Virus record (IMG/VR): IMGVR_UViG_3300033512_000238
Coordinates: 1 to 45,369 of that record
From: a virus
Reading direction: 5' to 3' (one strand)
Length of the DNA: 45,369 nt
In this document: piece after piece, positions 745-16,483 of the stretch
How the letters are laid out: the number at the start of each line of letters is the position of its first letter
Position numbering within the stretch: the stretch's first letter is position 1
The notes under the pieces: generated by a model
What the model was told of the DNA's origin: nothing
Databases searched by the model: none
Seen by the model: only the letters and a program-made list of their open reading frames with translations
Position numbers and translations under genes: made by a program

Positions 745-878
745 AAGCGCGGGAATATTTACGACTCCTCGGGGAAATCCCGCGGGGCGTTTTCTTTTTG
801 GCGGTATACGTCCCGGCGTTTCTATTTTACAGGGTACGGCGGGAACTAAAAAGGACAACAGAAAAAGGGGAACAATGA
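741..878 (+). CDS. small membrane protein (45 aa)
   Basis: ATG 741 overlaps TGA 742-744 (ATGA), and its own TGA 876-878 overlaps the next ATG 875 (ATGA). It has one hydrophobic helix (GVFFLAVYVPAFLFY) followed by a basic tail. Confidence 0.5.
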   Translation: MKAREYLRLLGEIPRGVFFLAVYVPAFLFYRVRRELKRTTEKGEQ

Positions 879-2467
879 AGCTCGAGCAAATGCAAATAAC
901 AGAGACGAAAATCTCGGACCTAATCGGGGCCGATTACAACCCGCGAATACTACTCGCGAAAGAGTTCGACGACCTCCGGGCGTCTCTCGACCGTTTCGGG
1001 ATAGTAGAACCGGCGGTCGTGAATAGACACCCCGGGCGGGAAAACGTAATAGTCGGGGGACACCAAAGAATAAACGTCGCGCGGGCTCTCGGGCGTGATA
1101 CATTCCCGGTGGTATTCGTTGACCTCGACGAGGAACACGAAAAGGAGCTAAACGTCCGACTCAATAAAAACGGCGGCCGGTGGGATTTTGATAAGCTCGC
1201 GAACCTTTTCGAGCTCGACGACCTCGTCGCGTGGGGATTCGAGGAGGGGGAACTCCTCGGGAGATGCGACGAACTACTCGACGAACTAAACGAGGAGGCA
1301 ATCGAAGCGGGACCCGGGGCGGAAGCGTCCGACGAACTCCCGGAGGTATCGGAAAACGACGCCGAAGTCGTATCGGTCCGGGGCGATGTTTGGGAGTGCG
1401 GCCGTCACCGGGTAATGTGCGGAGACTCGACGGCGTTCGGGGACCTCGAGAAGCTCCTCCCGGAGGGGGAACAAATCGCGACGATATACGCGGACCCTCC
1501 TTACGGCATGAAAAAAGAGGCGGACGGGGTAGCAAACGACAACCTCAACGACGACGACCTCCTCTCGTTCAACGTCGAGTGGTGGCGGACATTCCGGGCC
1601 CGGGCAAAACAAAACGCAAACGCGGTAATATTTGGGAACGCTCGCGTATTATGGAAATGGTGGTACTATCCGGAGATCGGCCTCGAGGCGTCGGAGCCGT
1701 TGACATTCAAAAACGAGATCGTATGGGCGAAAGGCTCCGCGCAGGGGAGAGGGTCGGACCTCGAAATCTCATTCCCGAACCAAACGGAGAGGGCTCTATT
1801 TTTCAACCTCGGGAAATTCGTTTCCGCTATCTCTCGAGACAGTTCGGAATATTTCGAGGAGTGGGAGCCGCTCCGGTTATACTTCGCGGGAGAGGCGGAC
1901 CGCTCCGGGCTTTCGGGGAAAAAATTCGACGAGCTCTCGAAAACAAACGGGATGCTCGGACACTATACGGGCCGTTCTCAGTGGTCATTCCCGACGCGGG
2001 AAAAATACGCGGTTCTCGATGAGTTCGGCGGCGGGGAATATTTCACGCGATCTTTCGACGACCTCCTCCGGGAATACAATCGAGCCCGGGCCGCGGTCGA
2101 CGCTAAACTCGAGGAGCTCCGGGGCTACTTTTGTTTGAACAACGACGCCGAACTCGACGACGTTCTCCGGGTCCCGGGAGTACAGGGAGACGAGAGACAC
2201 GGACACGCGACGCCGAAACCGGTCGAGCTAAACAAAAAAATACTCAAGACGATTACAAAGCCGGGGACGATAGTCGCGGAACCTTTCGGGGGCTCCGGGG
2301 CAACTCTCGCGGCGTGCGAAGAGCTCGGATTCGCCTCCCGTACTATGGAAATAGAACCGCGGTGGGTAGACGTTATCGTCCGGCGGTGGCAAAAGCAAAC
2401 AGGGCGGGCGGCATTTCACGCGGAGACGGGGAAACCTTTCGACGAATACGAACCGGGGCGGGAGTAA
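875..2467 (+). CDS. ParB-like nuclease domain fused to DNA methyltransferase (DPPY type, N6-adenine or N4-cytosine)
   Basis: The N-terminus has DYNPR ... VGGHQR (ParB/sulfiredoxin-like). The middle has IYADPPYG (motif IV). The C-terminus has VAEPFGGSGATL (motif I, FxGxG). The motif IV-before-I order indicates beta-class. Target sequence is unknown. Confidence 0.85.
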   Translation: MKLEQMQITETKISDLIGADYNPRILLAKEFDDLRASLDRFGIVEPAVVNRHPGRENVIVGGHQRINVARALGRDTFPVVFVDLDEEHEKELNVRLNKNGGRWDFDKLANLFELDDLVAWGFEEGELLGRCDELLDELNEEAIEAGPGAEASDELPEVSENDAEVVSVRGDVWECGRHRVMCGDSTAFGDLEKLLPEGEQIATIYADPPYGMKKEADGVANDNLNDDDLLSFNVEWWRTFRARAKQNANAVIFGNARVLWKWWYYPEIGLEASEPLTFKNEIVWAKGSAQGRGSDLEISFPNQTERALFFNLGKFVSAISRDSSEYFEEWEPLRLYFAGEADRSGLSGKKFDELSKTNGMLGHYTGRSQWSFPTREKYAVLDEFGGGEYFTRSFDDLLREYNRARAAVDAKLEELRGYFCLNNDAELDDVLRVPGVQGDERHGHATPKPVELNKKILKTITKPGTIVAEPFGGSGATLAACEELGFASRTMEIEPRWVDVIVRRWQKQTGRAAFHAETGKPFDEYEPGRE

Positions 2468-2637
2468 TGCAGGTGCAAAGATTAGGGGCGGCGGCTATTC
2501 TTTTTTTTGTTCTAGGGTTTACAGCAGGGACGGCGGAAAGCCTCAAAGGGTACGCCGCTTTTGTTGTTCTCGGGGTTTATTCGTGGAAATGGCTCGACAA
2601 CGCAATAGAACAGATTAGGAAAGAGCGGGGCAAATGA
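2467..2637 (+). CDS. small two-TM membrane protein (56 aa), holin-like topology
   Basis: ATG 2467 overlaps the TAA of the methyltransferase (TAATG). Two hydrophobic stretches (LGAAAILFFVLGF, AAFVVLGVYSW) are followed by a charged C-terminus (DNAIEQIRKERGK). Confidence 0.5.
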   Translation: MQVQRLGAAAILFFVLGFTAGTAESLKGYAAFVVLGVYSWKWLDNAIEQIRKERGK

Positions 2638-2790
2638 ACGGCCCGCGGGACATTCTCGAGGCTCTCGGGTTTTATGGCGTCGAACCGTCGAGAACTATCC
2701 CGCCGCCGAACCCGGGCACAAGTTCGCGGAGCTCAAGTAATCGGAGCGAAGCTCCTCGCGGGTTTTCGTTTTTCAACAGATCGGGTAAAA

Positions 2791-3420
2791 ATGGCGGAAA
2801 GTAAGAAGAAAAAAGGAAAGCCGAAAGCGGTCGGGGCGGGAGCTCAAAGGCAATACACGCCGGAGACTCTCGTCGAGATCGAGAACGCGGTATCTAACGG
2901 AGCCCAAACGGGCCCCGCTATCGCCGCCGCAATTGGAGTAACGCCACAGGCTTTCAACAATCATAGGTACCGAAAAACGAGCCCGGAGACGACAGAGAGA
3001 GCCGATGCAATCGAGAGGGCTATAAAAAGGGGACAAAGCCGCCGCCGCGAGTCGATCAAGTCGACCGCGGAGGACGCTCTCCTCAAACTTATAAAAGGCT
3101 TTGAACTCACGGACGAAATAGAGGAGGTCCGGAAGAAAACAGCGGCCCGGCCGAAAGGGTGGAAACCCGGAGACCCGGAGCCGTCGGAAGAGGTAAACGT
3201 CTACAAACGGCGGACCATCAAGAGATACGGCCCGAACGTCACGGCCGTTCTTTTTGCTCTCGTCAACAGTGACCCGGAGAGATGGCAGAGTATTTACTCC
3301 CGGAGCAATGCGGACGACGTGAACGAAAACGAAAACCGCGGAACTATTGCAAATTGGATGCGGCAACAAGTCGAAGCGGGCGCGAGAATGAACTCGAAAC
3401 GAAACGGCGGCGGGGAATGA
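2791..3420 (+). CDS. terS: terminase small subunit (putative, HTH-containing)
   Basis: Lies immediately upstream of, and overlapping (ATGA), the large terminase. It has a Lys-rich N-terminus then an HTH-like segment (GPAIAAAIGVTPQAFNNH). The ORF track extends to ATG 2674; I prefer ATG 2791 (MAESKKKKGK). Confidence 0.55.
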   Translation: MAESKKKKGKPKAVGAGAQRQYTPETLVEIENAVSNGAQTGPAIAAAIGVTPQAFNNHRYRKTSPETTERADAIERAIKRGQSRRRESIKSTAEDALLKLIKGFELTDEIEEVRKKTAARPKGWKPGDPEPSEEVNVYKRRTIKRYGPNVTAVLFALVNSDPERWQSIYSRSNADDVNENENRGTIANWMRQQVEAGARMNSKRNGGGE

Positions 3421-4655
3421 TACCAACGGACCTACAACTCGAAAGCCTCGAGAGTGCAAACGCGCGTCTAAATATTTGGCACGGGCCCGTTAGATCGGGG
3501 AAAACTATCGGGGCAAATATCCGGTGGGTGAAATTCCTTTTAGGGCTCGACAAACACGACTACCCCGGAAGCGGGGCGCTTTTTATCGCGGGCGTATCGG
3601 TCGGGTCGGCTCTCCGGAACGTCGTCGAACCATTGCGCGAAATGCTCGGGGAAGAGTGCAAATATATTCCCTCTCGGTCTATCGTCCGAATATTGGGGCA
3701 CGACGTTTACCTATTCGGGGCGGCGTCGGAGGGGTCGGAGAAACTTATCCGGGGGCTAACGTGCGCGGGCGCTCTACTCGACGAGGTAACACTCCTCAAC
3801 AAATCATTTTTTATGCAAACGCTCGCGCGTCTCTCAGTGAAGGGCGCGAAGCTATTCGGGGCAACGAACCCCGACAGTCCGAAACATTGGCTGAAGGCCG
3901 ATTTTCTCGACAAAAAAGCGGATCACAATCTCAAAGAGTATCTTTTCCCGCTCACAGCAAACACCTATCTCGACCCGGAGTACGTCGCGGCGCTATCTCG
4001 GGAGTATACCGGAATGTGGAGGGCTCGAAATATCGAGGGGAAATGGGTCGCGGCCGACGGTCTCGTTTATGAGGGATTCGAGGAGCGGGCGCCGTTCGTT
4101 ATTCCACAGGCCCCGGCGGCGGCAACCTCTTACTATATCACGGTCGATTATGGTATTCAAAACCCGACCGTTTTTCTTTTGATTGGTCGAAACCGTTTGA
4201 CCTCTCCGCGTATATGGTGCGAGCGGGAGTATTACCACAGCGGCCGCGAGACAAAAATCCTAAAAACGGACAAAGAACTCGCGGACGACCTTTACGAGTG
4301 GGCCGGGAGTTCGGTCCGTTCGAAGCTCCTCGGGATAGTCGTCGACCCGTCGGCGTCCTCTTTCATTGAGGAACTAAAGCGGCGGGGCCTCCCGGTAATG
4401 AAAGCGGAAAATGAGGTACTCCCGGGAATACAACGACAGGCGCGGGCGCTTTTTGCCGGAGATTACGCGATTTGTCGAGAGTGCCGGAAAACTATCGAGG
4501 AGTATTTTCTCTACCGGTTCGACTCGAAAGGGGTCCTGCTTGGTAAGGATATAGTGGTCAAAGACGCGGACCATACAAAAGACGCGGAGAGATATTATTT
4601 TAACACAGTAGAACACGGGCGGGGGATCGATTACGACCTATTCGCCGGAGACTAA
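3417..4655 (+). CDS. terL: terminase large subunit
   Basis: Walker A GPVRSGKT near the N-terminus and Walker B-like GALLDEV. Length and position before the portal fit. ATG 3417 overlaps the upstream TGA (ATGA). Confidence 0.9.
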   Translation: MIPTDLQLESLESANARLNIWHGPVRSGKTIGANIRWVKFLLGLDKHDYPGSGALFIAGVSVGSALRNVVEPLREMLGEECKYIPSRSIVRILGHDVYLFGAASEGSEKLIRGLTCAGALLDEVTLLNKSFFMQTLARLSVKGAKLFGATNPDSPKHWLKADFLDKKADHNLKEYLFPLTANTYLDPEYVAALSREYTGMWRARNIEGKWVAADGLVYEGFEERAPFVIPQAPAAATSYYITVDYGIQNPTVFLLIGRNRLTSPRIWCEREYYHSGRETKILKTDKELADDLYEWAGSSVRSKLLGIVVDPSASSFIEELKRRGLPVMKAENEVLPGIQRQARALFAGDYAICRECRKTIEEYFLYRFDSKGVLLGKDIVVKDADHTKDAERYYFNTVEHGRGIDYDLFAGD

Positions 4656-4671
4656 ACAGAAAGGGCCGGGA

Positions 4672-5991
4672 ATGAGAAAACGGATAACGAACCAACAACA
4701 GAACTTCGACGGGTGGGTCAATCTTTTTACCTTACTTGGTACGGAAAAAGACAGCAAAACGATGACGAAATTCGAGCCGGGCCGCTCTCTTACGGAGCAA
4801 GAGTGCGCGGACGTTTACGCGGAGAACGGAGTCTGCCGCCGAATTATTGAGGCATTCCCGAAACATGGAACCCGCCGTTGGATTGACCTCGAGAACGACG
4901 ACGACGACCGGTTCGGGAAAGAACTCCGGAGAATCGGGGCAAAAGCCGCATTTAGAGAGGCGGGAATCGAGGCCCGGACGTTTGGCGGGGCATATATCGC
5001 GATTTATACGGACGGATCCGCGGAACTAAACGAGCCGCTCGACCTATCAAAAGCGGTAACCGTTGACGAGCTCGAAGTTTTCGGGAGATTCGACGCGAAA
5101 CCGGTCTCGAGATACGGCCCGGACACCGGGAAAAAATCCGGGCGGCCGGAGCTCCTCGAGTGCTATCGGTGGGACGGTTCACACGCGACAATACACGAAA
5201 GCCGCCTCCTCTATTTCGACGGGGCTCGAGCAACGGCCCGCCGCCGCAAATTGAACGACGGGTACGGCGATTCTGTTCTCTCCTCTATTTACGAGTCGGC
5301 CCGCTCTTACGGCGCGTCTCTCGGGTATATTGAGACCCTTATACAATCTTACGACGTCCCGGTCCTAAACGTGGAGGGCCTCGCGGCTCAAATAGCCGGG
5401 GGCAACGAGGACCGAATAAAAAAGCGGTTTTCGTTTCTCAATCTCGGGCGCTCACTTTTAAATATGGTGATACTCGACAAAGATGAGAAATACACGCGGG
5501 GCGCCGCCTCTCTTACCTCAATTCCGGAAGTGATCGACCGTTTCGCCTCGAAACTATCGGCCGACTCGGGCGTCCCGGTTAAAATTCTCATGGGCTCGAG
5601 CCCCGCCGGTCTACAATCGACAGGGGACGCCGATATCCGTTCGTTTTATGATGAAATAGCCGACTTTCAAGTCGAGCAATTTGAGCCGAATCTCGACAAA
5701 TTACTCGCGGTTATCGAGACGGCTATCCCGCTTTTGTCGGCGGACCGTCCTCCCGTGGTAAAATGGCGGCCTCTTTGGGAACCGTCGGAAAAAGAAGCGG
5801 CGGAGACCCGGAAAATACAGGGAGATACGGACGGCCTTTATATCGACAAAGGCGTCGTGACTCCGGAGGAAATCCGGGAAAATCGGTTCGTCAATGGCGG
5901 CGGCTTAAATACGGCCGTTGAAAGTGTGGAACTCGACGACATGGACGACGCGGACGCGCTCGAAGAACAAAAGAAAAACGGGGGCGAATAG
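4672..5991 (+). CDS. portal protein (DUF1073-like)
   Basis: A 439-aa ORF between terminase and the MuF head protein, with an acidic C-terminus. The resemblance to DUF1073-type portals is from memory only. Confidence 0.75.
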   Translation: MRKRITNQQQNFDGWVNLFTLLGTEKDSKTMTKFEPGRSLTEQECADVYAENGVCRRIIEAFPKHGTRRWIDLENDDDDRFGKELRRIGAKAAFREAGIEARTFGGAYIAIYTDGSAELNEPLDLSKAVTVDELEVFGRFDAKPVSRYGPDTGKKSGRPELLECYRWDGSHATIHESRLLYFDGARATARRRKLNDGYGDSVLSSIYESARSYGASLGYIETLIQSYDVPVLNVEGLAAQIAGGNEDRIKKRFSFLNLGRSLLNMVILDKDEKYTRGAASLTSIPEVIDRFASKLSADSGVPVKILMGSSPAGLQSTGDADIRSFYDEIADFQVEQFEPNLDKLLAVIETAIPLLSADRPPVVKWRPLWEPSEKEAAETRKIQGDTDGLYIDKGVVTPEEIRENRFVNGGGLNTAVESVELDDMDDADALEEQKKNGGE

Positions 5992-8900
5992 TGAAAGCTC
6001 CGGCGATGCTCTACCCGACATTGATCGAGAAACAATTCGCGAACGACTCAGAACAATTCGGGGACGCTCTCCGGGCGTATGTTCTCGAGGAGTTCGTCCC
6101 GGAGCTCCGGGGAATAGCGGCCCGCGTGGAACGGGAGCGAACGGACGACGCGAACCTCCCGGGCGACGGGCATTGGTCGAGCGATATACAAAGAGCTCTC
6201 CGGAGACTAAAGAACAAAGCCGACGAGATAGCGGCAACCTCGGAACCTCTCGCGGACGCGGCGTCGTTCAAGGTCGAACAATGGACAAACAAGGAAATTT
6301 TGAAGCTCGAGAAGCTCCTCCCGGCCGATTACCTCGCGGCGAATAAAACCGGGTACAACCCGGAGAACATACGGAACAGCCTCCGGAAAGCGTGGTCCAA
6401 AAATTACGCGGGACTAATAACCGCGGTAACGGACGAAACGGTCGCGAAGGTCGGCCGCATTGTATACGAGGGATTCGCGGTGGGGGAGAGTTACAAGTCG
6501 ATAGAGAAAAAAATTATTTCCGGGGGGCCTATTGAGGCGCTAAAAAATCCGCCATTCAATACGGCCCGGAAGCGGTCGCGATTGATAGCCCGGGACCAAA
6601 TCGGGAAACTTAACGGGAAACTAATCGAGAAGCGACAAACACAGCTCGGGATAGATTCGTATATTTGGCGGACCTCTCTCGACGAGCGCGTCCGGGGGAA
6701 CCCGTCCGGGCGCTATCCGAACGCGGTCCCGTCTCATTATGGCCGGGAGGGGAAGGTCTACAAATGGGACACCCCGCCGGAGGGAGGACACCCCGGGGAG
6801 GCTATTTTGTGCAGATGTACGGCGGAGCCATATATCGAGGGAGTAACGGGGGAACAGGGGGCCGCGGGAGTGACCGGGAAAACTATCGGACCGGCTCAAA
6901 GCCTCGGGGCTAAAATCGAGAATCTCAGAACAGCGGCGGCGGCGGCTCTCAATCTCGCGAGCAATACGGCCGGTGAAGCTATCCGGGCTCTCTCGACAGC
7001 GGAAACGGCCGCGAAGGAACTCGAGGACCTCGTCGACGGAATAGTCGGGATAGAGGACGAACTCGACGAGCTCGCAAAGAAAGCCGCGACAGTGAAGCTG
7101 AACGAGAAACTAAAGCAAGCGGAAGCGGCGAAAGCGGCGGCGGCGGGGCTCTCCGGGAAAGCTCAAAAGGCGAAAGCGGCGGCGGAAAAGGTGAACAGCG
7201 CGAAAGCGGCCGGGCCCGCGGCAAAAGCACAAGCGGCGGCGGCATTGTCTCACGTCGAAAACATCGAGAAAACCCTCGAGGCTCTCGACAATGTTCTCGC
7301 AAAAGCGGTGGCGGCAAAAGCGGCGGCGGAGGATAAACTCGCGAAAGCTCTCGCAATCAAAAAAGCAAAAGCGGCGGCGCTCGAGGAGGCGGAGGACCTC
7401 GTCGATGGGCTCGAGGGAGTCGACGCGGCTATCGTAAAAAGTAAATTCACAAAGGGAGAGTTCGACGCCGACGGGGAGGCGTTCGCCAAAAACATAAAAG
7501 CCGAAGCGGCCGCCGTTCTCTCGAAACTGAAAAAGGGGGGCGCCGCTTTTCAAAAGGCCGAAAGCATGATCAAGGACGCCGACTATTATCTCGCGGCGAA
7601 GCTCAAGAGCGAAGCGGCAAAACTCGCGGCGCTATCAACAGCGAACACAACAGCGGACGCGGCTCTCGCGAGTAAATACGGGGTAAACGCCGCCGGGATA
7701 AAAGCGGTCGACGCGAGCGAATGGACGTACAAAAGCCCAAAACAGGGGTCGAACCCCGGGGGAATTTACGAGGACAAAGCCGGGGCCCGTTATATTGTAA
7801 AAGTTATGGACGAGGAACACGCTATAAACGAGCTCCTCGCGTCGAAACTCTACAAAGCGGCGGGCGTTCACACTTCCGACATGATGCTCGTCGAGGGCGT
7901 GAACTACAACGGGAAACCGACGAGGGCTCTCGCGGGCCGGTGGATCGACGGTTTAGAGTCGGGCGTCTCAGAACTCAAAAGCGCGAAAACGGGGCCGGGC
8001 GGCTTTATTGACGGCGCGGGTGTCGATATGTGGCTCGCGAATTGGGATTCCGTCGGGCTCACTATGGACAACATACTCAAGGACACAGCCGGGAACCTCG
8101 TCCGAATTGACGTAGGGGCCGCGATGAAATTCCGGGCGCAAGGTCAAAAGAAACCATTCGAGGCCGGAAAGGTCCCGGAGCTCGAAACGTACCTAAACGG
8201 GGTAAACGACCAAATAACACCGATTTTGTCGAAATATAGCGCGGACGATATAACCCGGAGTCTCGAGAAAGTCGCGAATTTTACGGACGAAACTATCGAC
8301 GACATTCTCGACACAGTGTGGAAAGGTTCGACGCTCCCGGATAAAACGCGGGAGGAGTACCGGGAAGCGCTCAAAGGGCGCCGGGACGTAATTCGGGCCG
8401 AATGGGAGAAAAGAGACGGACCGAAGCTCTCCGGGGCGGCTCTCCCGGGGGCGATAAAAGGGAAAGCCCCGAAACCGTTCGACCCGTTCGACGATTACAA
8501 ACCCGGTGACGCGGTCCCGTTCCTATCTCCGGAAAAGTCGGACCATTTCCTCGCGAAGTACAAGAGCAACGGGAAAACGACGATGAAAAACGCGCTCGAA
8601 GCGAACGGGCTCGAGTCGGACAAAAATCTCGTAACCTATCCGGACGACGTTATCGAGGACGTCAAAGAATGGATGACAAAAGCGGACAAAGCTATCGAGG
8701 GCGGCGGGCCATTCCCGAAACCGCTCGACCTAAACGCCATAAGTAAAAAGATAAAAGCGGCGGAGGACGCGAAAATCGCCGCGGCAAAACTCGCGAACAA
8801 AGCAACGGCGGAGGGATTAAACAAAATGGCCGCCGATTCTTACGTCAAGGCCGACGAACTCCTCGAGAAAGCTATCGACGAGCTATACACGGTGGAAAAA

Positions 8901-9977
8901 TCCGACTTTTTGACAGTGAAGAACAACGCGGAGAAAGCTCTCGCAATTGCAACGGACGCGAAAGAAACGGCGGAGAAAGCCGCGAAGCTAGGGTACGAAG
9001 AAAAGGCGGTAATTCAAGAGCTACAGCAGGTGATAGACAACGCGGAGGCGGTCCTCTCCTCTCCGGAGTATATCGCAATCAAAAAGAAAGCGGGCGGAGA
9101 CACCTCGGCAAAAGCCCGTACTATAGGGGCCATAACGGCAAAGGAAAAAGAGGAGCGCCGGAAAGAACTCGGGAGGGACAACACAAACCCGGCCGCCGCT
9201 TTCGTTTTACAGGAGGGGAAACCGCTCGCGCAAACTGCAGAGGGCTTTCGGATAGTATTCGCGGACGACAAAAAGTACGCGAAAGACCTCGTCGACGCCG
9301 GGGTACAAGGGGCCGACGGTTATCAGTTGAACCGCGGAGACGGGAAAAAAAGGTGGGTCTCTATGGTGAAAAAGAAAATAGAAGGGCCGTGGACAAAGGG
9401 GTCGAACCGCGACTATTTGGAACGCGATGGCGTCCCGTGGGATAAATACGGAACAGAGAAGGACGCGCACGAGGTTTTGAGAGATTACACCGGCGGGTCG
9501 TATGGCAGTAGAAACAACTATTTACGCGGAATATCAAACCCGAACCCGCTCACGGCCGCAAAGCTCGACAGGGAGCATAAAGCCGCGGCGGAGCTAATAA
9601 GGCAACACACGGTAAAGGAGCCGCTCGTCGTTTGGCGCGGAGGAGATACGGCTTTCCTTAATAGTTTACTAAAACAAAGCGGGAAAAAGCTCGAGGACCT
9701 CGTCGGGACGGTTTACACCGAACACGCCTTTATGAGTACAACGACGACACACCGGGTAGCGTTCGAAGGGGGGACACTTTTCCGCCTCAATGTGCCTAAA
9801 GGGGCGAAAGCTATCCCGGCCCGACATATTTCGCAAATAACGGGAGAGGACGAAATAATATTCCCGCCGACGACGCGGTTTTATATTTCGGATATTCAAA
9901 ACATCGACTCGAGCCATGTATTGCACAACGGGCGGCACAATCGAGTAATAACGGTCGAAATTTTACCGGAGGAGTAA
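5991..9977 (+). CDS. polyvalent head protein: MuF/SPP1-gp7 minor-capsid domain + kinase-like module + C-terminal mono-ADP-ribosyltransferase (R-S-ExE) module
   Basis: MuF signature RSRLIARDQIGKLNG ... GEAILCRCTAEPYI. Ala/Lys/Glu coiled-coil linkers. GSNPGGIYEDKAGARYIVK ... DMWLANWDSVGLTMDNIL ... RIDVG (atypical kinase-like). C-terminal VVWRGG / FMSTTT / GEDEIIFPP triad. GTG 5991 overlaps the portal TAG; the alternative start is ATG 6006. Confidence 0.8.
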   Translation: MKAPAMLYPTLIEKQFANDSEQFGDALRAYVLEEFVPELRGIAARVERERTDDANLPGDGHWSSDIQRALRRLKNKADEIAATSEPLADAASFKVEQWTNKEILKLEKLLPADYLAANKTGYNPENIRNSLRKAWSKNYAGLITAVTDETVAKVGRIVYEGFAVGESYKSIEKKIISGGPIEALKNPPFNTARKRSRLIARDQIGKLNGKLIEKRQTQLGIDSYIWRTSLDERVRGNPSGRYPNAVPSHYGREGKVYKWDTPPEGGHPGEAILCRCTAEPYIEGVTGEQGAAGVTGKTIGPAQSLGAKIENLRTAAAAALNLASNTAGEAIRALSTAETAAKELEDLVDGIVGIEDELDELAKKAATVKLNEKLKQAEAAKAAAAGLSGKAQKAKAAAEKVNSAKAAGPAAKAQAAAALSHVENIEKTLEALDNVLAKAVAAKAAAEDKLAKALAIKKAKAAALEEAEDLVDGLEGVDAAIVKSKFTKGEFDADGEAFAKNIKAEAAAVLSKLKKGGAAFQKAESMIKDADYYLAAKLKSEAAKLAALSTANTTADAALASKYGVNAAGIKAVDASEWTYKSPKQGSNPGGIYEDKAGARYIVKVMDEEHAINELLASKLYKAAGVHTSDMMLVEGVNYNGKPTRALAGRWIDGLESGVSELKSAKTGPGGFIDGAGVDMWLANWDSVGLTMDNILKDTAGNLVRIDVGAAMKFRAQGQKKPFEAGKVPELETYLNGVNDQITPILSKYSADDITRSLEKVANFTDETIDDILDTVWKGSTLPDKTREEYREALKGRRDVIRAEWEKRDGPKLSGAALPGAIKGKAPKPFDPFDDYKPGDAVPFLSPEKSDHFLAKYKSNGKTTMKNALEANGLESDKNLVTYPDDVIEDVKEWMTKADKAIEGGGPFPKPLDLNAISKKIKAAEDAKIAAAKLANKATAEGLNKMAADSYVKADELLEKAIDELYTVEKSDFLTVKNNAEKALAIATDAKETAEKAAKLGYEEKAVIQELQQVIDNAEAVLSSPEYIAIKKKAGGDTSAKARTIGAITAKEKEERRKELGRDNTNPAAAFVLQEGKPLAQTAEGFRIVFADDKKYAKDLVDAGVQGADGYQLNRGDGKKRWVSMVKKKIEGPWTKGSNRDYLERDGVPWDKYGTEKDAHEVLRDYTGGSYGSRNNYLRGISNPNPLTAAKLDREHKAAAELIRQHTVKEPLVVWRGGDTAFLNSLLKQSGKKLEDLVGTVYTEHAFMSTTTTHRVAFEGGTLFRLNVPKGAKAIPARHISQITGEDEIIFPPTTRFYISDIQNIDSSHVLHNGRHNRVITVEILPEE

Positions 9978-9982: not shown

Positions 9983-10261
9983 ATGGAAAGGGAAAACACG
10001 GGGGAGATACTCGACGAGTCGGGCCTCTCGCAATGTTTATTTTGTACACGATGGACCGGGCGGGGAACGTGCGAAGCCTATCCGGGGGAACCGTTCAAAG
10101 TGCCGGTGGTTATTCTCGCGAATAAACACGATCACCGGGACGCCTATCCGGGGGACGGCGGTCTCCTATTTTCTCCGGCGAATAGAGAAAGCGCGATAAA
10201 ACAGGACAAAGCCGTCGAACGGGCTCGAGTCGGGTCGATTACTTTTAGAGGGGGGAAATAG
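9983..10261 (+). CDS. hypothetical small Cys/His-containing protein (92 aa)
   Basis: ORF track, with GAGGAG about 10 nt upstream. Contains CLFC ... C ... HDH, a possible metal site. No family recognised. Confidence 0.5.
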   Translation: MERENTGEILDESGLSQCLFCTRWTGRGTCEAYPGEPFKVPVVILANKHDHRDAYPGDGGLLFSPANRESAIKQDKAVERARVGSITFRGGK

Positions 10262-10443
10262 TGGCGAACGAGGAAAAACAAGAGGACGGGTTCACGGTAA
10301 GGACTCTCGGGGAGGCGGTCGGCCGGGCGGTCGGACAATACGCGGCGGAACGATTGACGGGGCGAATAGTGGTGACAATAGACCTGCGGGACGGCGGAAT
10401 CGGCCGGGCCGGGATTGAGGTATCGAGCAAGCTCCGGCCATAA
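10261..10443 (+). CDS. hypothetical protein (60 aa)
   Basis: GTG 10261 overlaps the upstream TAG (TAGTG). Last ORF before the P1 intergenic region. Confidence 0.4.
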   Translation: MANEEKQEDGFTVRTLGEAVGRAVGQYAAERLTGRIVVTIDLRDGGIGRAGIEVSSKLRP

Positions 10444-10500
10444 AAACGGGAGGTTTTAGGCGAAACAATACATAAAAATTAGGAGCGGGAAAAATATTTC

Positions 10501-10544
10501 TCGCTTTTTTATTGTTTTAGTGTTATATTTTAGAATGTAACAAC
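10501..10544 (+). promoter_or_regulatory. promoter P1 with near-palindromic box (extended -10 TGTTATATT; weak -35)
   Basis: TATATT at 10524-10529 preceded by TGT. Box TGTTATATTT-TA-GAATGTAACA at 10521-10542. Same box as at four other loci. Confidence 0.6.
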
Positions 10545-10552
10545 GAAGGACA

Positions 10553-10581
10553 GCCCGAAGGGCAAAACAAAGGTGGACCAA
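10553..10581 (+). promoter_or_regulatory. leader hairpin + Shine-Dalgarno unit, copy 1
   Basis: GCCC-GAA-GGGC followed by AAAACAAAGGTGGACCAA then ATG 10582. Confidence 0.55.
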
Positions 10582-11472
10582 ATGGAACAAATCAAAGCAG
10601 TAGCGACAGTCAAAACAACAAAAGCAGGGGAAACGGTTTATCATTACGCGGTAGCACTCCCGGCAATGACAGCGGACGACGGCGAAGAAATGGCCGCTGT
10701 CGAATCAACTCGCAAAACTGACAACAAGTACAGCCACGTTGTATTGTGGAATAGTAAAAGAGGCGTCCCGGTCGTTTGTGGATATACGAACGACGCGGCC
10801 GGATATATTGCCCGGACTCTCTCAGAGGACAACCGCCTCCGGAAAATGTACAAAAAGGAGCCATTAACAGCGGCGGACCATTGTCTCCGGGCGGTCGCGA
10901 TTGAGTTCGTAGAAGCTCCGGTAAAAGCTCCGAAAACAGCAAAAGCAAAAGCGGAAGCGGCTCCGGTTATCGAAGCGGCTCCGGCTATCGAAGAAACCCC
11001 GGCCCCGGTAGCTCTCGAAGCGGCTCCGGTCGCTCCGGTTGTCCCGACAGCGGCGGAGGCGAATCTCGACGGTTTTGTCGTCGAGATCGACAGAACCACC
11101 GGCGTTTGTTTTATCTCCGGGGGGAAGTACAACGCGGAGAAAGCGCTCACTATTATTCACCGAAACGATTGGTGGCTCCGAAACATCGGGGAGGACGTCC
11201 TCGACCTTATCGCGACGGTGAACAATAGCGATATACACGGCCGCGAGTTCAAAGAGGCGGCCTATCAACTCCTTAAAATTTGCCAACCGGAAGAACAGGC
11301 GGCCGCCGCAATCGCGACAACGGACGAGGAGGAAAGCGTCCTGCGTCAACTCTCATACGTTCACGGATTCACGTCGACACCGGAGGAGACTCCGGAGCCA
11401 AACGTCGAGAAACTTATCCGGGCCGCATTTTTGAACGGGAGACAGCGCGGGAGAACCGCCGGGAAAGAATAA
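10582..11472 (+). CDS. hypothetical two-domain early protein with Ala/Pro-rich linker (296 aa)
   Basis: First ORF after P1. The ATG sits at the spacing seen in the other leader units. The middle is APVKAPKTAKAKAEAAPVIEAAPAIEETPAPVALEAAPVAPVVP. No family recognised. Confidence 0.65.
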   Translation: MEQIKAVATVKTTKAGETVYHYAVALPAMTADDGEEMAAVESTRKTDNKYSHVVLWNSKRGVPVVCGYTNDAAGYIARTLSEDNRLRKMYKKEPLTAADHCLRAVAIEFVEAPVKAPKTAKAKAEAAPVIEAAPAIEETPAPVALEAAPVAPVVPTAAEANLDGFVVEIDRTTGVCFISGGKYNAEKALTIIHRNDWWLRNIGEDVLDLIATVNNSDIHGREFKEAAYQLLKICQPEEQAAAAIATTDEEESVLRQLSYVHGFTSTPEETPEPNVEKLIRAAFLNGRQRGRTAGKE

Positions 11473-11481
11473 CAGCAACGG

Positions 11482-11504
11482 CCCCGGGGGGAACTCTCCC
11501 GGGG
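11482..11504 (+). other. GC-rich intercistronic stem-loop (no U-tract)
   Basis: CCCCGGG (11482-11488) pairs with CCCGGGG (11498-11504), directly after stop 11470-11472. Confidence 0.4.
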
Positions 11505-11514
11505 AGACTTGAAA

Positions 11515-11544
11515 GCCCGAAGGGCAAAACGAAAGGGGCCAAAA
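11515..11544 (+). promoter_or_regulatory. leader hairpin + Shine-Dalgarno unit, copy 2
   Basis: GCCC-GAA-GGGC followed by AAAACGAAAGGGGCCAAAA then ATG 11545. Confidence 0.55.
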
Positions 11545-11805
11545 ATGGCAAAGATATTTTTCACAAACGGGGCGGAGATCGAGGTCGACCTCGCGCCGAA
11601 ATTTAAGGCCGGGGAGATTCTCCCGATATTACAGGGGCTTTTGGGCGGCTATATCCAAATAGCAACGGCGGTCGATACGGACGCCGGGACCGTCCTCGTA
11701 ATTGTGAACGAGGACGGGCTCGCGCTCGGGCTCGATCAAAACGCGCGGTTCCCTCAGTACGTCGGAACAGTGGTAACGGTTATCGACGGCGTCGAGATAG
11801 ACTAA
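11545..11805 (+). CDS. DUF3846-like protein (86 aa)
   Basis: ILQGLLGGYIQIA ... LVIVNEDGLALGLDQNARF matches my recollection of the DUF3846 pattern (l..lq..vGGyie.v ... NEeG.l.gLp.N). Confidence 0.55.
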   Translation: MAKIFFTNGAEIEVDLAPKFKAGEILPILQGLLGGYIQIATAVDTDAGTVLVIVNEDGLALGLDQNARFPQYVGTVVTVIDGVEID

Positions 11806-11812
11806 CAAGACA

Positions 11813-11833
11813 GGCCCGGGGAGGTCCCGGGCC
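11813..11833 (+). other. GGCCCGGG/CCCGGGCC intercistronic stem-loop (no U-tract)
   Basis: GGCCCGGG 11813-11820, loop GAGGT, CCCGGGCC 11826-11833, followed by AAAACG rather than a T-run. Confidence 0.45.
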
Positions 11834-11859
11834 AAAACGTAGAACGAGGAGAAAAAAAA

Positions 11860-12252
11860 ATGGACAAAATGCCGAAAGAACTCGAAAGAATTATTCACGC
11901 GAAAATCGAGCGCGAACTCCGCAAAAATGACACAAGAGCGGGACAACTAACGGACGCGGAAAAGGCCGCATGGCTCGAGGTTCAAGAGCTCGCGGACGCC
12001 TCCCGACAAATCCGGGAGAAGCTCAAGACGAAACAACGCCTATTTTGGGCCATTCTCGAGAGTCGTCTCGAGATATACGACAAAAATCTCCATTTGGACG
12101 AGAAAACGGGGGAGGTTTTCGTCTCCGGGAAACGAACCCGCGAAGAGGTCGAGACAGCGGTCCGGGAGGCTCTCAAAGGGACGCCGCTCGAGGGAGCCGC
12201 AGAGAATTTCAGTTTTGACGTTTTCGGGGACGACGAGGAGGCCCGCGAGTGA
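11860..12252 (+). CDS. hypothetical protein (130 aa)
   Basis: ORF track. GAGGAG plus an A-run upstream of the ATG. Helical and charged. No family recognised. Confidence 0.6.
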   Translation: MDKMPKELERIIHAKIERELRKNDTRAGQLTDAEKAAWLEVQELADASRQIREKLKTKQRLFWAILESRLEIYDKNLHLDEKTGEVFVSGKRTREEVETAVREALKGTPLEGAAENFSFDVFGDDEEARE

Positions 12253-12527
12253 TTAAATATGAAGTTTTTCAAGACGGGTCGGAGTGGATAGCCCGGTCCC
12301 AAAATGGCAAAGAGGCCAAAGGGAACACAGCGGCGGAGGCTCTCGAGAATCTCGTCCGGGAGGAGATAATCGAGTACAACCTCGCGACGGGGAGAACGTG
12401 CGATAAATGCGAAAACTCGACACAGGACGCCGGGGGGAATTTCTCTTGCACTCTCGACGAACTATTCGACGACGAGGGGGAGCAAGTAGCCCCGGGCCAT
12501 ACTTGCGAGGGGTATCTCGGGTGGTAA
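12249..12527 (+). CDS. hypothetical Cys-containing protein (92 aa)
   Basis: GTG 12249 overlaps the upstream TGA (GTGA). Contains CDKC ... C ... C, a possible zinc ribbon. Confidence 0.5.
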   Translation: MIKYEVFQDGSEWIARSQNGKEAKGNTAAEALENLVREEIIEYNLATGRTCDKCENSTQDAGGNFSCTLDELFDDEGEQVAPGHTCEGYLGW

Positions 12528-13131
12528 AAGAGACAGCAATACAAAAACCGGAGGGCTTTCGGGAAATATGGCGGCGCTCTCCGCTTTTGCGGCAGGATTA
12601 TTGGGTCTCAAATTTGGGTCGCCTCCGGAGGACGACAGGGGCGGGGGCGGCCCCAAAGGGTGGCGGGCCGATTCTCACGGGGAAAAAGGGGCGGGAAAGT
12701 CGATTTTGTACAAAGTAATGAACCCCGAAGGGAAGAAAAAACAATTTACGGCCGGGCGCCTCGTCGCGTCGGCCTTTTTGGGGTACACGGGGCCGGGAAA
12801 CCGGGTCGTATATCTTGACGGGGACGCGGAGAACCTCCGGCCGGAAAATCTCAAGATAGCCGCCTCCGCGAGCGAAGCTATCCGGGAGCAACGGGCACGA
12901 CTACCCCGGGCCATTGCCTCGAGTTTCACCGGGGAGCCGTATATCCGGACAGAGAACACTCCGGCGGGGGAACGGTTCTCGGTTTATTTGGGCATGAGGT
13001 ACGAACGGTTCAAGAAGTACGGGGGACAATGGGAGACCCTCGAAAAGGCGGTTATCGAGCGGGACCGGCTCGTCGATAGATACGAAGCGGCGATAATGAT
13101 CGCGGAGAAAAATATCATAACGATAAAATAA
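12521..13131 (+). CDS. NUMOD4 / HNH_3-like / AP2-like homing-endonuclease homologue. It needs a -1 shift near 12682-12688, and the catalytic His positions are substituted (possible pseudogene).
   Basis: Frame 2 from GTG 12521 (GAGGGG upstream) gives EIWRRSP ... YWVSNLGRLRR (NUMOD4) and stops at 12716-12718. Frame 1 (ORF track 12568..13131) continues with GKSILYKVMNPEGKKKQFTAGRLVASAFLG ... VVYLDGDAENLRPENL (HNH_3-like, His replaced) and GERFSVYLGMRYERFKKYGGQWETLEKAV (AP2-like). The junction run is GGGGAAAAAGGGG. Confidence 0.6.
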
Positions 13132-13133
13132 AT

Positions 13134-13176
13134 TTGACATTTCGCGCTCTCAGTGTTATATTTCAAAATGTAACAA
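13134..13176 (+). promoter_or_regulatory. promoter P2 (TTGACA-17-TATATT) with near-palindromic box
   Basis: TTGACA 13134-13139, 17-nt spacer ending TGT, TATATT 13157-13162. Box TGTTATATTT-CA-AAATGTAACA at 13154-13175. Confidence 0.75.
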
Positions 13177-13186
13177 GTAACGGACA

Positions 13187-13215
13187 CCCCGCCGGGGAAA
13201 ACAAAGGACTAAAAA
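13187..13215 (+). promoter_or_regulatory. leader hairpin + Shine-Dalgarno unit, copy 3
   Basis: CCCC-GCC-GGGG followed by AAAACAAAGGACTAAAAA then ATG 13216. Confidence 0.5.
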
Positions 13216-13470
13216 ATGATTCAAGAACTCAAAGCGGCGAACCTCACAACAGCTCAAAAGATCAACCTCGGAAAATCTCGCGCTCGTCAAGTATGGGGGG
13301 AGGCGATTCTCGCGGAACCGCGCTTCGCTTTCGAGCTCTCTCTCGCGGTTAAATTCGATAACGTACTCGACTTTTTGAAAAATAGCCGCGTCGGGCAACC
13401 GGCGGACGAGCGTTTCGCCTCACGTCGTCAGCGCATCTATTTTTGGACTCTCGCGAATACTATCAACTAA
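13216..13470 (+). CDS. hypothetical protein (84 aa)
   Basis: Single ORF between P2 and the terminator at 13481. No family recognised. Confidence 0.55.
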   Translation: MIQELKAANLTTAQKINLGKSRARQVWGEAILAEPRFAFELSLAVKFDNVLDFLKNSRVGQPADERFASRRQRIYFWTLANTIN

Positions 13471-13480
13471 AAAACAAACA

Positions 13481-13513
13481 GGCCCGGAGGCGAAAGTCTC
13501 CCGGGCCTTTTCT
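13481..13513 (+). terminator. intrinsic terminator (bulged GGCCCGG stem + T-rich tail)
   Basis: GGCCCGGAGG 13481-13490 pairs with CTCCCGGGCC 13498-13507 (one bulge), followed by TTTTCT. Confidence 0.55.
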
Positions 13514-13520
13514 ATTGACA

Positions 13521-13550
13521 CCCCGAAGGGGGAAACGAAAGGCGGCCAAA
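13521..13550 (+). promoter_or_regulatory. leader hairpin + Shine-Dalgarno unit, copy 4
   Basis: CCCC-GAA-GGGG followed by GAAACGAAAGGCGGCCAAA then ATG 13551. Confidence 0.5.
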
Positions 13551-14210
13551 ATGGCACGAGAAAAAGAGTTCGACCTCGACGCGGCTATCGCGGAGACGGT
13601 TCGGAAATTTACGGCGGGGGATTGTTTTCTCCTCGCGTCAAAAGTGAAAGCCTCGAAAGGTCTCGTTTGTAAGCGATTCTTTACGGGAGAGGACGCGGCG
13701 GAGGGCCTCCGGGCGTCTCGCGTTGGTCTATCGGTCGGCCGCGTGGAGTGGTCCGGCGTTTGGATTGTACCGGCGGACAAACGCGACGGCGTCGCAGATC
13801 AATTCGAACACAAAAACGAGATACCGGTCGAGGGCCTCGTCGCTTTTGCCTCTCGAGCAATCGGGGCCGATAGCGTGGACCATTACCGGGCATTTAATCG
13901 CCTTTTCCCTTTCGACGCTCGAGACCTCGCGACCGGGCCTCTTATCGCGACGAAAAAGGGAAAGGAGTCTTGGGAGTTTCTCCGGGTCGGCCATAACAAA
14001 ACAACGGAAGCGCTCGAGACCATGAAAGCTATACACCGGGGGGAGAGTTTCGGGGAGATTATCGTCGCGGCGGGTCCGGACGGCGAACGGGTCCGGGGAA
14101 TGATCGCGGACGGGCAAATCGAGCGGGCTCGAGATGTTTCGATTTATTGGGGGACAACTCCGGACCCTCGAGGGAAAGCTCTCGCAATGTATCAAGGCGG
14201 CGAACAATGA
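13551..14210 (+). CDS. hypothetical protein (219 aa)
   Basis: ORF track 13443..14210. I prefer ATG 13551, which has the conserved leader unit. No family recognised. Confidence 0.6.
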   Translation: MAREKEFDLDAAIAETVRKFTAGDCFLLASKVKASKGLVCKRFFTGEDAAEGLRASRVGLSVGRVEWSGVWIVPADKRDGVADQFEHKNEIPVEGLVAFASRAIGADSVDHYRAFNRLFPFDARDLATGPLIATKKGKESWEFLRVGHNKTTEALETMKAIHRGESFGEIIVAAGPDGERVRGMIADGQIERARDVSIYWGTTPDPRGKALAMYQGGEQ

Positions 14211-14464
14211 TCCGCGGGGAGCTCCTTATATTGGGAGAAAAGTCGAACGAGTTTTCGGACCGGACCGCCGGGGCGTTGTGGATTACAGAAAAGGCCGCGC
14301 TCGAAAATGGGTGGGACGTGATTAGGGCCGATTATGGCGAAGATTGGGCCGGGCTTTACGGCCCCGGGATTGAATACTCCCCGGTTTTAATGGTTTTAAA
14401 AATAGAAGGGACTCCGGTCGGAATCTCGATAGCGTGTAGGGGCTCGAATAATGGGAAAAAGTAG
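14207..14464 (+). CDS. hypothetical protein (85 aa)
   Basis: ATG 14207 overlaps the upstream TGA (ATGA). Confidence 0.5.
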   Translation: MIRGELLILGEKSNEFSDRTAGALWITEKAALENGWDVIRADYGEDWAGLYGPGIEYSPVLMVLKIEGTPVGISIACRGSNNGKK

Positions 14465-14702
14465 TATTTTGTATTTTGTGAACGACGGGCCGGACGAGTC
14501 TCATGTTTTTTGGGAGTCGTCGCAATTCGGGACCCTAAAAGAGGCCCGGGAGTATATCCAAACGCTCGCGGCGGGGCGTTGGTATCGCCTCGAGAGGCAC
14601 GATTACAGCAATGTAAAACCGTTCGCCGTTTCAACCCCGGAGAACGTCCGGACAATTGAAGGGCCAAAAGAGAAAAAAAACGACGAGGAGGTCGGGAAAT
14701 GA
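14451..14702 (+). CDS. hypothetical protein (83 aa) ending in the KKNDEEVGK junction cassette
   Basis: ORF track. Its last 9 codons are part of the repeated AAAAAACGACGAGGAGGTCGG(G)AAATGA cassette. Confidence 0.5.
   Translation: MGKSSILYFVNDGPDESHVFWESSQFGTLKEAREYIQTLAAGRWYRLERHDYSNVKPFAVSTPENVRTIEGPKEKKNDEEVGK
14673..14702 (+). promoter_or_regulatory. junction/RBS cassette, copy 1
   Basis: aaaaaaaacgacgaggaggtcgggaaatga. A strong GAGGAGG SD, with ATG 14699 overlapping TGA 14700-14702. Confidence 0.6.
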
Positions 14703-14896
14703 ATCGAGAAAACAAAACAATCGTAACAATTGCCGGGAAAGAATACAACGCGACCGGCTTTCAAATCAACGCGCCTCACTTTATGGCCGGGCCGCAATGG
14801 CTCAAGACTCCGGGACGGATCGCGGTCGCGGTCGTTCACTCAAAGAGAACAGAAAACGCGCTTTATTTTGGAACGGGGGCCGCAAATGGTCGGTAA
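14699..14896 (+). CDS. hypothetical protein (65 aa)
   Basis: ATGA overlap with the upstream ORF and a strong SD. No family recognised. Confidence 0.5.
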   Translation: MNRENKTIVTIAGKEYNATGFQINAPHFMAGPQWLKTPGRIAVAVVHSKRTENALYFGTGAANGR

Positions 14897-15587
14897 ATTA
14901 TGGCATTGTGATTTGGAAACCGGCGGACTCAACCCGCGGACCTCCGCAATAGTGCAGGTCGCTTGTATCATGGAAATAGACGGCGAAAAAGTCGGCCGGT
15001 TCTCCTCTTTGGTTCGGCCATTCCCGGGGCTCGAATGTACGGACGAGGCTCTCGCTATTTCGGGAATACAACGCGCGGACCTCGAAGGGGCTCCGGACGA
15101 GAAACGAGTATTTTCGGAAATGTTCGCTTGGCTTTCGGCTTATGTTTCGAAGTTCGACAAAGCCGACAAAGCAATTTTTACAGGGTACAACTCGCAGTTC
15201 GACGACGGATTCGTCCGGGCCGCTTGCGACCGTCACGGGGAGAAATACCTCGGGTCTTGGAAATGGCCCGACGTTTACGACGTCCGGGGAGCCGCGGCGC
15301 TCTATTGTCTCCCGTATCGCCATTGGCTCCCGGACTTTCAACTCGGGACCGTTTCGGAGTTCCTCCTCCGGGATTACGACAGCCCGGAAATGATCGCAAC
15401 GACGGTAGCGCGGGCGCTTGGTATTCCCGGAACAGGTCTGCACGACGCGCGGGTCGATATTGAGCTCTCGAGGCTTTTATTTCATAAGGTCCGACAGCCG
15501 TTTCAATTCCGAATATCTCGGGAGGAGCTCGAGAGACGCCTCGAGCACGTTCGCGAGTTCAAAGAGGCGAAAGGGGGCCAAAAATGA
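14886..15587 (+). CDS. DEDDh 3'-5' exonuclease (DnaQ/epsilon-like)
   Basis: WHCDLETGGL (Exo I D-x-E), YNSQFDDGF (Exo II) and GLHDARVDIELS (Exo III H-x4-D). ATG 14886 is chosen within ORF 14730..15587. Confidence 0.75.
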   Translation: MVGKLWHCDLETGGLNPRTSAIVQVACIMEIDGEKVGRFSSLVRPFPGLECTDEALAISGIQRADLEGAPDEKRVFSEMFAWLSAYVSKFDKADKAIFTGYNSQFDDGFVRAACDRHGEKYLGSWKWPDVYDVRGAAALYCLPYRHWLPDFQLGTVSEFLLRDYDSPEMIATTVARALGIPGTGLHDARVDIELSRLLFHKVRQPFQFRISREELERRLEHVREFKEAKGGQK

Positions 15588-16289: not shown

Positions 16290-16348
16290 CGGGGGGCAAA
16301 AGGAAAGGAACCTAACAACGAGACAGCCCCGACAGCAACTAAAACGAG

Positions 16349-16384
16349 GCCCGGAGATAGTTCGACACTGCTCCGGGCTTTTTG
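16349..16384 (+). terminator. intrinsic terminator ending the early block
   Basis: GCCCGGAG 16349-16356 pairs with CTCCGGGC 16371-16378, then TTTTT. Confidence 0.7.
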
Positions 16385-16483
16385 CGTCTCAAAACAACTC
16401 GTTTGAGCGGTCGGCCCTCCGGCCTCGCGTATAGTATTAAACAAATTAAAAAACAAATACAATACAATAGCAGTAACACTACA

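Follow-up and report, generated by a model that had tools for sequence, protein, structure and literature searches.

The stretch of DNA considered here, called the window, is the whole of the IMG/VR virus record IMGVR_UViG_3300033512_000238 (positions 1 to 45,369; 45,369 nucleotides). Directly behind its portal gene lies one open reading frame (ORF) of 1,328 codons, whose product joins an N-terminal MuF/SPP1-gp7 minor head domain to two putative enzymes, a protein-kinase-like module in the middle and a mono-ADP-ribosyltransferase (ART) of the R-S-ExE type at the C-terminus. An earlier reading of the letters alone, referred to here as the original prediction, had proposed this arrangement. MuF-ART fusions, head-delivered ARTs and polyvalent proteins are already known; the kinase-ART pair appears to be undescribed, and a literature search returned no paper describing either the kinase module or the pair. 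The main interest of the locus lies in the family of kinase modules and in how closely it is tied to ARTs.

Domain architecture of the 1,328-residue protein

The stop codon of the portal gene and the start of the 1,328-codon gene overlap by one base (TAGTG), and a Shine-Dalgarno-like GGGGG run is found 8 nucleotides upstream of the GTG start. The identical product was called independently on a public 40-kb contig (Logan SRR931294_36116), in agreement with the uninterrupted frame directly after the portal gene that the original prediction had described. The MuF/SPP1-gp7 signature read there is recovered by two curated profiles above their cut-offs, PF04233 (Phage_Mu_F) on residues 154-278 with 38.3 bits (cut-off 29.6) and TIGR01641 (SPP1 gp7) on residues 188-280 with 42.7 bits (cut-off 39.65). 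In addition, phrog_324 ‘head morphogenesis’ covers residues 2-288 at an E-value of 6.7e-43.

The modules are separated by the two Ala/Lys/Glu-rich linkers that had been noticed before. Measured in windows of 40 residues, Ala, Lys, Glu and Leu together make up 50-80% of residues ~321-560 and ~921-1000, with Ala alone reaching 38%. Linker 1 has no family match in Pfam or PHROG and no homolog in 159 relatives of the protein. The segment between the kinase-fold module and linker 2 (residues 808-920) likewise matches no family and is unlike the inter-domain region that is conserved in relatives. The segment preceding the ART gave no Pfam match (E<=10) and no homologs by word search; this stretch may form a small additional domain or else belong to the ART as its helical N-terminal portion. 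The sole Pfam family to come up at E<=10 when the middle module and the pre-ART segment were searched in isolation, RsiG, was judged a chance match. All module boundaries derived with these tools (Table 1) agree with the nucleotide ranges first proposed to within ~20 codons.

The C-terminal ADP-ribosyltransferase

The C-terminus matches the curated profile PF03496 (ADPrib_exo_Tox) at an E-value of 1.4e-18, with 67.4 bits against a cut-off of 23.4 and over profile positions 18-193 of 196. Sequence matches in the PDB include Lmo0066 (8za7; E 5e-14) and C3larvin (E 4.6e-7) as well as Vip2, C3 and SpvB. When aligned with Lmo0066 and C3larvin, R1216 (in VVWRGG), S1249-T-T (in FMSTTT) and E1286-D-E1288 fall on the R, the STT/STS and the ExE/QxE of these solved ARTs. 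The ordered triad recognized by eye is thereby confirmed, and profile and motifs together place the predicted domain in the R-S-E clade of ARTs (C3/VIP2/Alt type). Within this clade the ExE motif goes with arginine-specific transfer, while C3 enzymes with QxE modify asparagine. Lmo0066 itself is mentioned only in passing in the genomics papers that a literature search returned, which included no functional study of it.

A kinase-fold module in the middle of the protein

Searches of Pfam (even at E<=10), PHROGs, NCBIfam and PADLOC returned no match for the middle module (residues ~555-830). A word-indexed search yielded 14 homologs at ~33% identity, and invariant in their alignment are GSNPGG, a Lys, a Glu, LANWD, DN, R-I-D-x-G-G and R-A-x-G..K. 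An AlphaFold2 model built with the homolog alignment reached a predicted local distance difference test score (pLDDT) of 84 and a predicted template modeling score (pTM) of 0.84. Compared with the PDB by Foldseek, a search that the original prediction had proposed for this part of the protein, the model gave 191 matches at E<=0.001, and of the 50 matches listed all but two are kinases. The best is CtkA from Helicobacter pylori (3akl; E 2e-6, template modeling (TM) score 0.58, probability 1.0), followed by phosphoinositide 3-kinase (PI3K)-delta and then by an ATM-inhibitor entry, BRAF, YopO and an aminoglycoside phosphotransferase. Among predicted viral structures (BFVD), the first matches are giant phage proteins named ‘ADP ribosyltransferase’ or ‘portal protein’ and proteins of the Gordonia phages GodonK and Sixama and of Mycobacterium phage Onyinye; next in rank come viral proteins annotated as PI3K/PI4K catalytic domains.

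The motifs named in the original prediction (GSNPGG, K604, NWD, DN and RIDVG) are present and lie on invariant or nearly invariant columns. In alignments of 15, 34 and 34 sequences this holds for the Gly-loop, K604, E614, D686, N694 and D707, and R715, K721 and E730 are further conserved residues; the ART motifs are kept among homologs as well. We take the pattern N-W-D-x5-D-N-I-L ... R-I-D-V-G to resemble the catalytic and activation loops of PI4K type II and PI3K. The confident model suggests that the middle module has a protein-kinase-like fold of the CtkA/HipA/PI3-4-kinase type, predicted to hold the full set of phosphotransfer residues. HipA_C is matched below threshold by 5 of 68 relatives (best E 4.6e-5, 23.6 bits against a cut-off of 30.5), and in the one relative checked, P0017, the match lies inside the module, on the N-lobe with the Lys and alphaC region.

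Table 1. Features of the polyvalent protein gene and its immediate neighbors (positions in the window; stop codon included in the gene).
Feature	Position	Strand	Residues	Basis or location
Portal gene	4672..5991	+		phrog_146 (E 1.6e-86); PF06381 Phage_portal_3
Polyvalent protein gene, 1,328 codons, GTG start	5991..9977	+	1-1328	single open frame
MuF/SPP1-gp7 minor head domain	6450..6824	+	154-278	PF04233, TIGR01641, phrog_324
Linker 1, Ala/Lys/Glu/Leu-rich, low-complexity, presumed helical	6888..7655	+	~300-555	composition
Kinase-fold module (predicted)	7713..8411	+	~575-807	AlphaFold2 model, Foldseek, conserved columns
Gly-loop GSNPGG			586-591	loop between first two strands of model
beta3 Lys			K604	end of third strand
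alphaC Glu			E614	helix after third strand
Catalytic-loop Asp (LANWD; NWD 684-686) and Asn (DN 693-694)			D686, N694	after helix corresponding to alphaE
DFG-like Asp (RIDVG 705-709)			D707	I-D-x-G motif
Pro/Gly-rich segment, then short stretch of ordinary, non-low-complexity composition	8412..8750	+	808-920	composition
Linker 2, Ala/Lys/Glu-rich	8751..9110	+	~921-1040	A+K+E+L 0.60-0.68
Pre-ART segment	9111..9458	+	1041-1156	between linker 2 and ART
R-S-ExE mono-ADP-ribosyltransferase (predicted)	9459..9962	+	1157-1324	PF03496; PDB sequence matches
92-residue ORF	9983..10261	+		starts 6 nucleotides past stop of 1,328-codon ORF; usual site of MuF-toxin immunity genes

A large family and its partners

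A profile of the kinase-fold module was searched against 1.84 billion cluster representatives (clusters at 50% identity) and found 5,771 clusters at E<=0.001, with 3,320 of them at E<=1e-30. Most of the best 150 relatives are 1,000-7,000 residues long, and some of these giants contain two to five tandem kinase-fold modules (P0015 with 3,416 residues, P0016, P0017, and P0027 with 7,004 residues). NUDIX-kinase fusions are common among the shorter relatives. Partner domains were collected by scanning with Pfam two non-overlapping samples of 34 relatives, 68 in all. The most frequent are ADPrib_exo_Tox (21), Phage_Mu_F (15), WGR (12) and ART (PF01129; 5), joined by HipA_C below threshold (5), NUDIX (3), ART-PolyVal, DRAT and HTH_17 (2 each), and Scabin-like, Peptidase_C80 and HARE-HTH (1 each).

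The ARTs were counted with a local profile iterated from the ART domain of the window protein. Among the best 150, an ExE ART is found in 116 of the 142 relatives of at least 600 residues (82%); it lies C-terminal to the kinase in 109 of the 116 and almost always ends a few residues from the C-terminus of the protein. In 117 relatives the columns of the E-x-E motif hold Glu 114 and 115 times, the Arg column holds Arg 95 and Lys 19 times, and the Ser column holds Ser 65 and Cys 50 times. Drift of the iterated profile into low-complexity sequence is refuted by these conserved R, S/C-x-S and E-x-E columns. As an observation in its own right, ~43% of the related ART domains have Cys for the first Ser of S-T-S while Arg and ExE are kept.

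Single-sequence phmmer searches against the 159 relatives matched the kinase module in all 159 and the ART in 19, rising to 117 after iteration; the same kind of query found no match there for the MuF domain, the linkers or the inter-domain segments. MuF, kinase-like module and ART together form a recurrent architecture in uncultured phages. The original prediction had been unable to match this combination to any characterized protein. That holds in so far as no characterized or named member was found; as a combination, however, it is not singular, and the window protein is a typical representative of a class that is abundant yet has neither a name nor a characterized member.

In the relatives P0013 and P0175, further fusion partners of the module are seen: a region like dual-specificity phosphatases (PF22784/PF05706/PF22785) and a peptidase domain of the OTU type (PF02338). 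A stand-alone member of 311 residues (P0012; positions 8001-8936 of L003, a 238-kb metagenome scaffold) adjoins murG, ftsW, murD, mraY and a flagellin gene, and no ART or phage genes were seen near it on this bacterial chromosome. Because it sits among bacterial cell-wall genes, the kinase family is not exclusively phage-borne.

Split-gene loci and sequenced isolates

The same parts also occur as separate genes. In locus L004 (5374-14254) the order is portal, a 272-residue ORF, a stand-alone kinase, an 84-residue ORF, a 1,017-residue ART and a 627-residue NUDIX protein. The 272-residue ORF carries the motif P-x-E-x-x-CRC-x-A and is possibly a MuF-like protein. Loci L007 (4932-10542) and L008 (3850-9731) encode a giant kinase+ART protein, an ORF of ~150 residues and a NUDIX-kinase fusion. 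We observe that the order of giant kinase+ART protein, ~150-residue ORF and NUDIX gene, often with a second kinase module, recurs in unrelated contigs (L001 at 2090-7075, L004, L007 and L008), and that phage Jeremy has a ‘nucleotide phosphatase’ at the corresponding place.

Among 50,697 sequenced phage isolates, tblastn found the kinase module in only 20, whose hosts are Gordonia, Pseudomonas putida/syringae, Yersinia, Aeromonas, E. coli, Enterobacter, Morganella and an actinomycete. Culturable relatives include Yersinia phage fHe-Yen8-01, Gordonia phage GodonK and the Pseudomonas phages Jeremy and Dolphis. As in the window, the portal gene of GodonK is directly followed by the gene for gp67, which contains the module. 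In Yersinia phage fHe-Yen8-01, gp129 is a protein of 2,146 residues in which the kinase module spans ~1572-1805 and the ART ~1983-2151, and its GenBank annotation reads ‘phage particle associated protein’. Since megablast of the 1,328-codon gene found no match among the same 50,697 phage records, the window phage is without a close sequenced relative.

Proposed function and competing explanations

A polyvalent protein is characterized by two or more effector domains in one polypeptide in a virion or delivery setting, and the kinase-fold module and ART fused to MuF beside the portal gene fit this description. We consider it probable that the gene encodes a virion-delivered two-enzyme polyvalent effector. 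The MuF/gp7 domain would dock the protein at the portal inside the capsid, its gene being presumably coupled in translation to the portal gene, and the two Ala/Lys/Glu-rich linkers would tether both enzymes, which would exit the head with the DNA at infection. Most likely, the kinase-fold module would then phosphorylate host proteins on Ser/Thr and the ExE ART would modify arginines of host proteins using nicotinamide adenine dinucleotide (NAD+), so that the pair could divert host machinery or put it out of action ahead of all phage gene expression. Packaging and ejection in the window phage, as well as the enzyme activities with their acceptors, targets and role, are what we infer. Co-injection gains support because the gene follows the portal gene and because gp129 of fHe-Yen8-01 is annotated as particle-associated.

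Several observations weigh against this explanation. The likeness to CtkA is moderate, with 14% identity at the TM score given above, and the kinase call comes from a predicted structure. The module of the window protein matches none of PF00069, PF00454 and PF07804 at E<=10, and the family profile found no kinase among PDB sequences, only chance matches to L23 and coiled coils; the call therefore rests on fold and not on sequence. Of the atypical PI3/4-kinase- or HipA-like enzyme in the original prediction, the fold and the predicted active site stand by model and Foldseek, but membership of a named family by sequence does not. The spacing from Asp to Asn in the catalytic loop is 8 residues, which is three more than the 5 that we take to be canonical for kinases. 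Furthermore, kinase-fold enzymes can carry out AMPylation or glutamylation or act on small molecules. As for the C-terminus, a single-sequence AlphaFold2 model of residues 1040-1328 has a pLDDT of only 36 and a word search gave no homolog for this region. The co-occurrence was counted in the 150 best-scoring cluster representatives, and these are no random draw from the 5,771. Lastly, gp129 of fHe-Yen8-01 is a distant homolog with no MuF domain detected, the note on particle association stems from GenBank, and a literature search found no paper on fHe-Yen8-01 behind it.

We think it unlikely that kinase and ART form an obligate pair in NAD+/ADP-ribose chemistry with NUDIX and WGR as optional third parts, the kinase module then standing for a large unnamed family with an obligate ART partner, often with NUDIX and WGR, in which phosphorylation would be coupled to ADP-ribosylation. 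Here the kinase would act on the ADP-ribosyl mark, the ART target site, NAD+ or ADP-ribose, and the outcome would be an irreversible or primed modification or the countering of NAD+-based defenses. The partner set argues for such a coupling, being narrow and centered on ADP-ribose (ARTs of at least four Pfam families, NUDIX, and WGR, which is associated with poly(ADP-ribose) polymerases) and free of methylases, helicases and nucleases, which polyvalent proteins typically carry. So do the terminal ExE ART and its fixed place after the kinase in the large relatives, the adjacency of kinase, ART and NUDIX when they are split, including the second kinase-NUDIX fusion two genes on in L007 and L008, and the conserved basic motif after DxG (R715, K721), which could bind a phosphate-rich ligand. 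However, the ART is the commonest enzyme in polyvalent proteins anyway (PMC9503650), and the co-occurrence could for this reason reflect shared delivery. The nearest solved fold is that of a protein Ser/Thr kinase. In the window phage no NUDIX or WGR was detected in the genes scanned: there is none in the 1,328-residue protein and none is recorded among the genes of the 23-kb L002 stretch. The conserved inter-domain region of the relatives is lacking too, as a profile of their kinase-to-ART region (PPDFLNW..GKGLSS..HPSQH) has no match in the window protein, whose connector measures 350 residues against a median of 178 in the relatives. Also, no kinase that acts on ADP-ribosyl marks is known to us. 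If true, this coupling would amount to a new two-step host-modification or anti-defense chemistry injected with phage DNA.

Domain layout and position would also fit a MuF polymorphic toxin (Jamet et al. 2017), acting in bacterial competition or lysis-lysogeny decisions with the 92-residue ORF as its immunity protein, an explanation that we judge to be quite improbable. The defining combination of an N-terminal MuF and a C-terminal toxin domain is present, 14% of these toxin domains are ARTs (PMC5576092), and the 92-residue ORF occupies the usual place of an immunity gene. Yet the family is described as exclusive to temperate phages and prophages, whereas no integrase or repressor was found in the window among the ORFs scanned (those of ~250 residues or more and several smaller ones) and, in a complete genome of 45.2 kb, almost every gene is on the same strand. 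The 92-residue ORF has no match in Pfam, PHROG or PADLOC and no counterpart beside the genes of relatives, and a second enzyme and 400 residues of linker go beyond the simple toxin layout. The downstream ORFs of 92 and 60 residues were considered together as candidate immunity genes and set aside, having no family match and no homolog in the loci of relatives. The remaining alternative concerns the kinase fold itself, which might serve as a pseudokinase scaffold or target-recognition part for the ART, or as an AMPylation (SelO) or glutamylation (SidJ) enzyme. Kinase folds with non-kinase chemistry are established, and both the unusual catalytic-loop spacing and the missing sequence-level membership of a kinase family would suit them. 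Against it stands that the ATP-binding and phosphotransfer residues are kept across hundreds of divergent relatives at ~30% identity, and we rate this alternative as very unlikely. Because Gly-loop, Lys, Glu, Asp, Asn and Asp are conserved, catalysis is favored over a pseudokinase; nucleotide-dependent chemistries are not told apart by them.

Relation to known systems

As a putative two-enzyme effector, the window protein resembles the MuF-fused ARTs (EFV toxin of the E. faecalis V583 prophage; Alt/VIP2-family) in its N-terminal MuF domain, its C-terminal R-S-ExE ART and its place in the portal/terminase block. Such fusions and head-packaged ARTs have been described (PMC5576092, PMC9503650). 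Unlike them, it adds a kinase-fold enzyme and ~400 linker residues between MuF and ART, and its phage is without sign of a temperate life and without a recognizable immunity gene. T4 Alt is a head-packaged ART that is injected with the DNA and has host RNA polymerase among the proteins that it modifies (PMC9503650, PMC5512222), and it provides a working model for the C-terminal ART, which is likewise predicted to be of the R-S-ExE type. To our knowledge, Alt lacks both a MuF domain and a kinase module and enters the head in another way.

With several effector domains in one giant polypeptide that is probably virion-associated, the protein is also like the polyvalent proteins defined by Iyer, Burroughs, Anand, de Souza and Aravind in 2017, whose cargo includes kinases and, as the most frequent enzymes, ARTs (PMC5512222). 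The kinase clade described there is a truncated Ser/Thr/Tyr-kinase without C-lobe, found mainly in prophages of Verrucomicrobia-Chlamydia and Bacteroidetes (PMC5512222); in contrast, the module studied here has a helical C-terminal part and PI3/4K/HipA-like motifs. The kinase-ART pair is described neither in that paper nor in the 2022 survey of viral NAD+-ADP-ribose systems, and the latter makes no mention of a kinase partner or of WGR.

Among kinases, the best structural match, CtkA (JHP0940; PDB 3akl/3akk/3akj), is a translocated compact atypical Ser/Thr kinase encoded on a mobile element, the tfs3 integrative and conjugative element (PMC5536186). It differs from the window module in having no sequence-profile relationship with it, in standing alone and in being aimed at eukaryotic cells. 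Likeness to HipA and the PI3/PI4-kinases is seen in the high rank of PI3K-delta among the fold matches and in the weak HipA_C matches of relatives, and is offset by the missing PF00454 and PF07804 matches. The T7 protein kinase (gp0.7) offers a functional analog of the middle module: it is reported to be a Ser/Thr kinase that acts on many host proteins at the very start of infection and disarms defenses (PMC13645617). Unlike the window protein, it is expressed early instead of being packaged and has no ART fusion, and no relatedness between the two was detected.

T4 Alt has long been the main worked example of a protein injected with phage DNA. Injected proteins act before phage gene expression and therefore decide whether an infection survives the first defenses of the host. 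The family described here contributes a second enzyme, missing from Pfam, PHROGs, NCBIfam and PADLOC, that is tied to terminal ExE ARTs in more than 100 clusters of giant phage proteins. It provides a system for asking what phage-delivered kinases and ARTs do jointly, which host proteins they hit and whether phosphorylation and ADP-ribosylation are coupled, and the kinase domain family is worth naming and modeling for phage annotation.

Genome context

The first 141 bases of the window recur exactly at its end (1-141 and 45229-45369), either because the assembly of a circular or circularly permuted genome overlaps itself or because there is a terminal repeat. Because of this repeat, we take the window to be a complete phage genome of ~45,228 bp; its G+C content is 55%. 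The 1,328-codon gene is preceded, in order, by genes for a ParB-methyltransferase fusion, the small terminase (TerS), the large terminase (TerL) and the portal protein, and the structural genes of the phage include Pa193_gp24-, Phage_cement-, Major_capside- and E217_gp27-type proteins.

Some further features of the genome were recorded in passing. The large-terminase ORF (3282-4655, 457 residues) overlaps the small-terminase ORF (2674-3420) by ~140 nucleotides, and in the public gene call (L002 6471-7709) the large terminase has a later start and 412 residues. Just upstream of the terminase genes, positions 875-2467 (+) encode a 530-residue protein with a ParB-like N-terminal domain fused to an N6/N4 DNA methyltransferase; this protein matches phrog_498 (E 6e-86) as well as PF02195 and PF01555. 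Between the MuF-fusion gene and the scaffold, decoration and major capsid genes (16763-19317) lie ~6.7 kb of mostly unmatched small genes (9983-16700, +), an unusual break in the head module that also contains an HNH endonuclease (12568-13131) and an RNase_T-type 3'-5' exonuclease (14730-15587).

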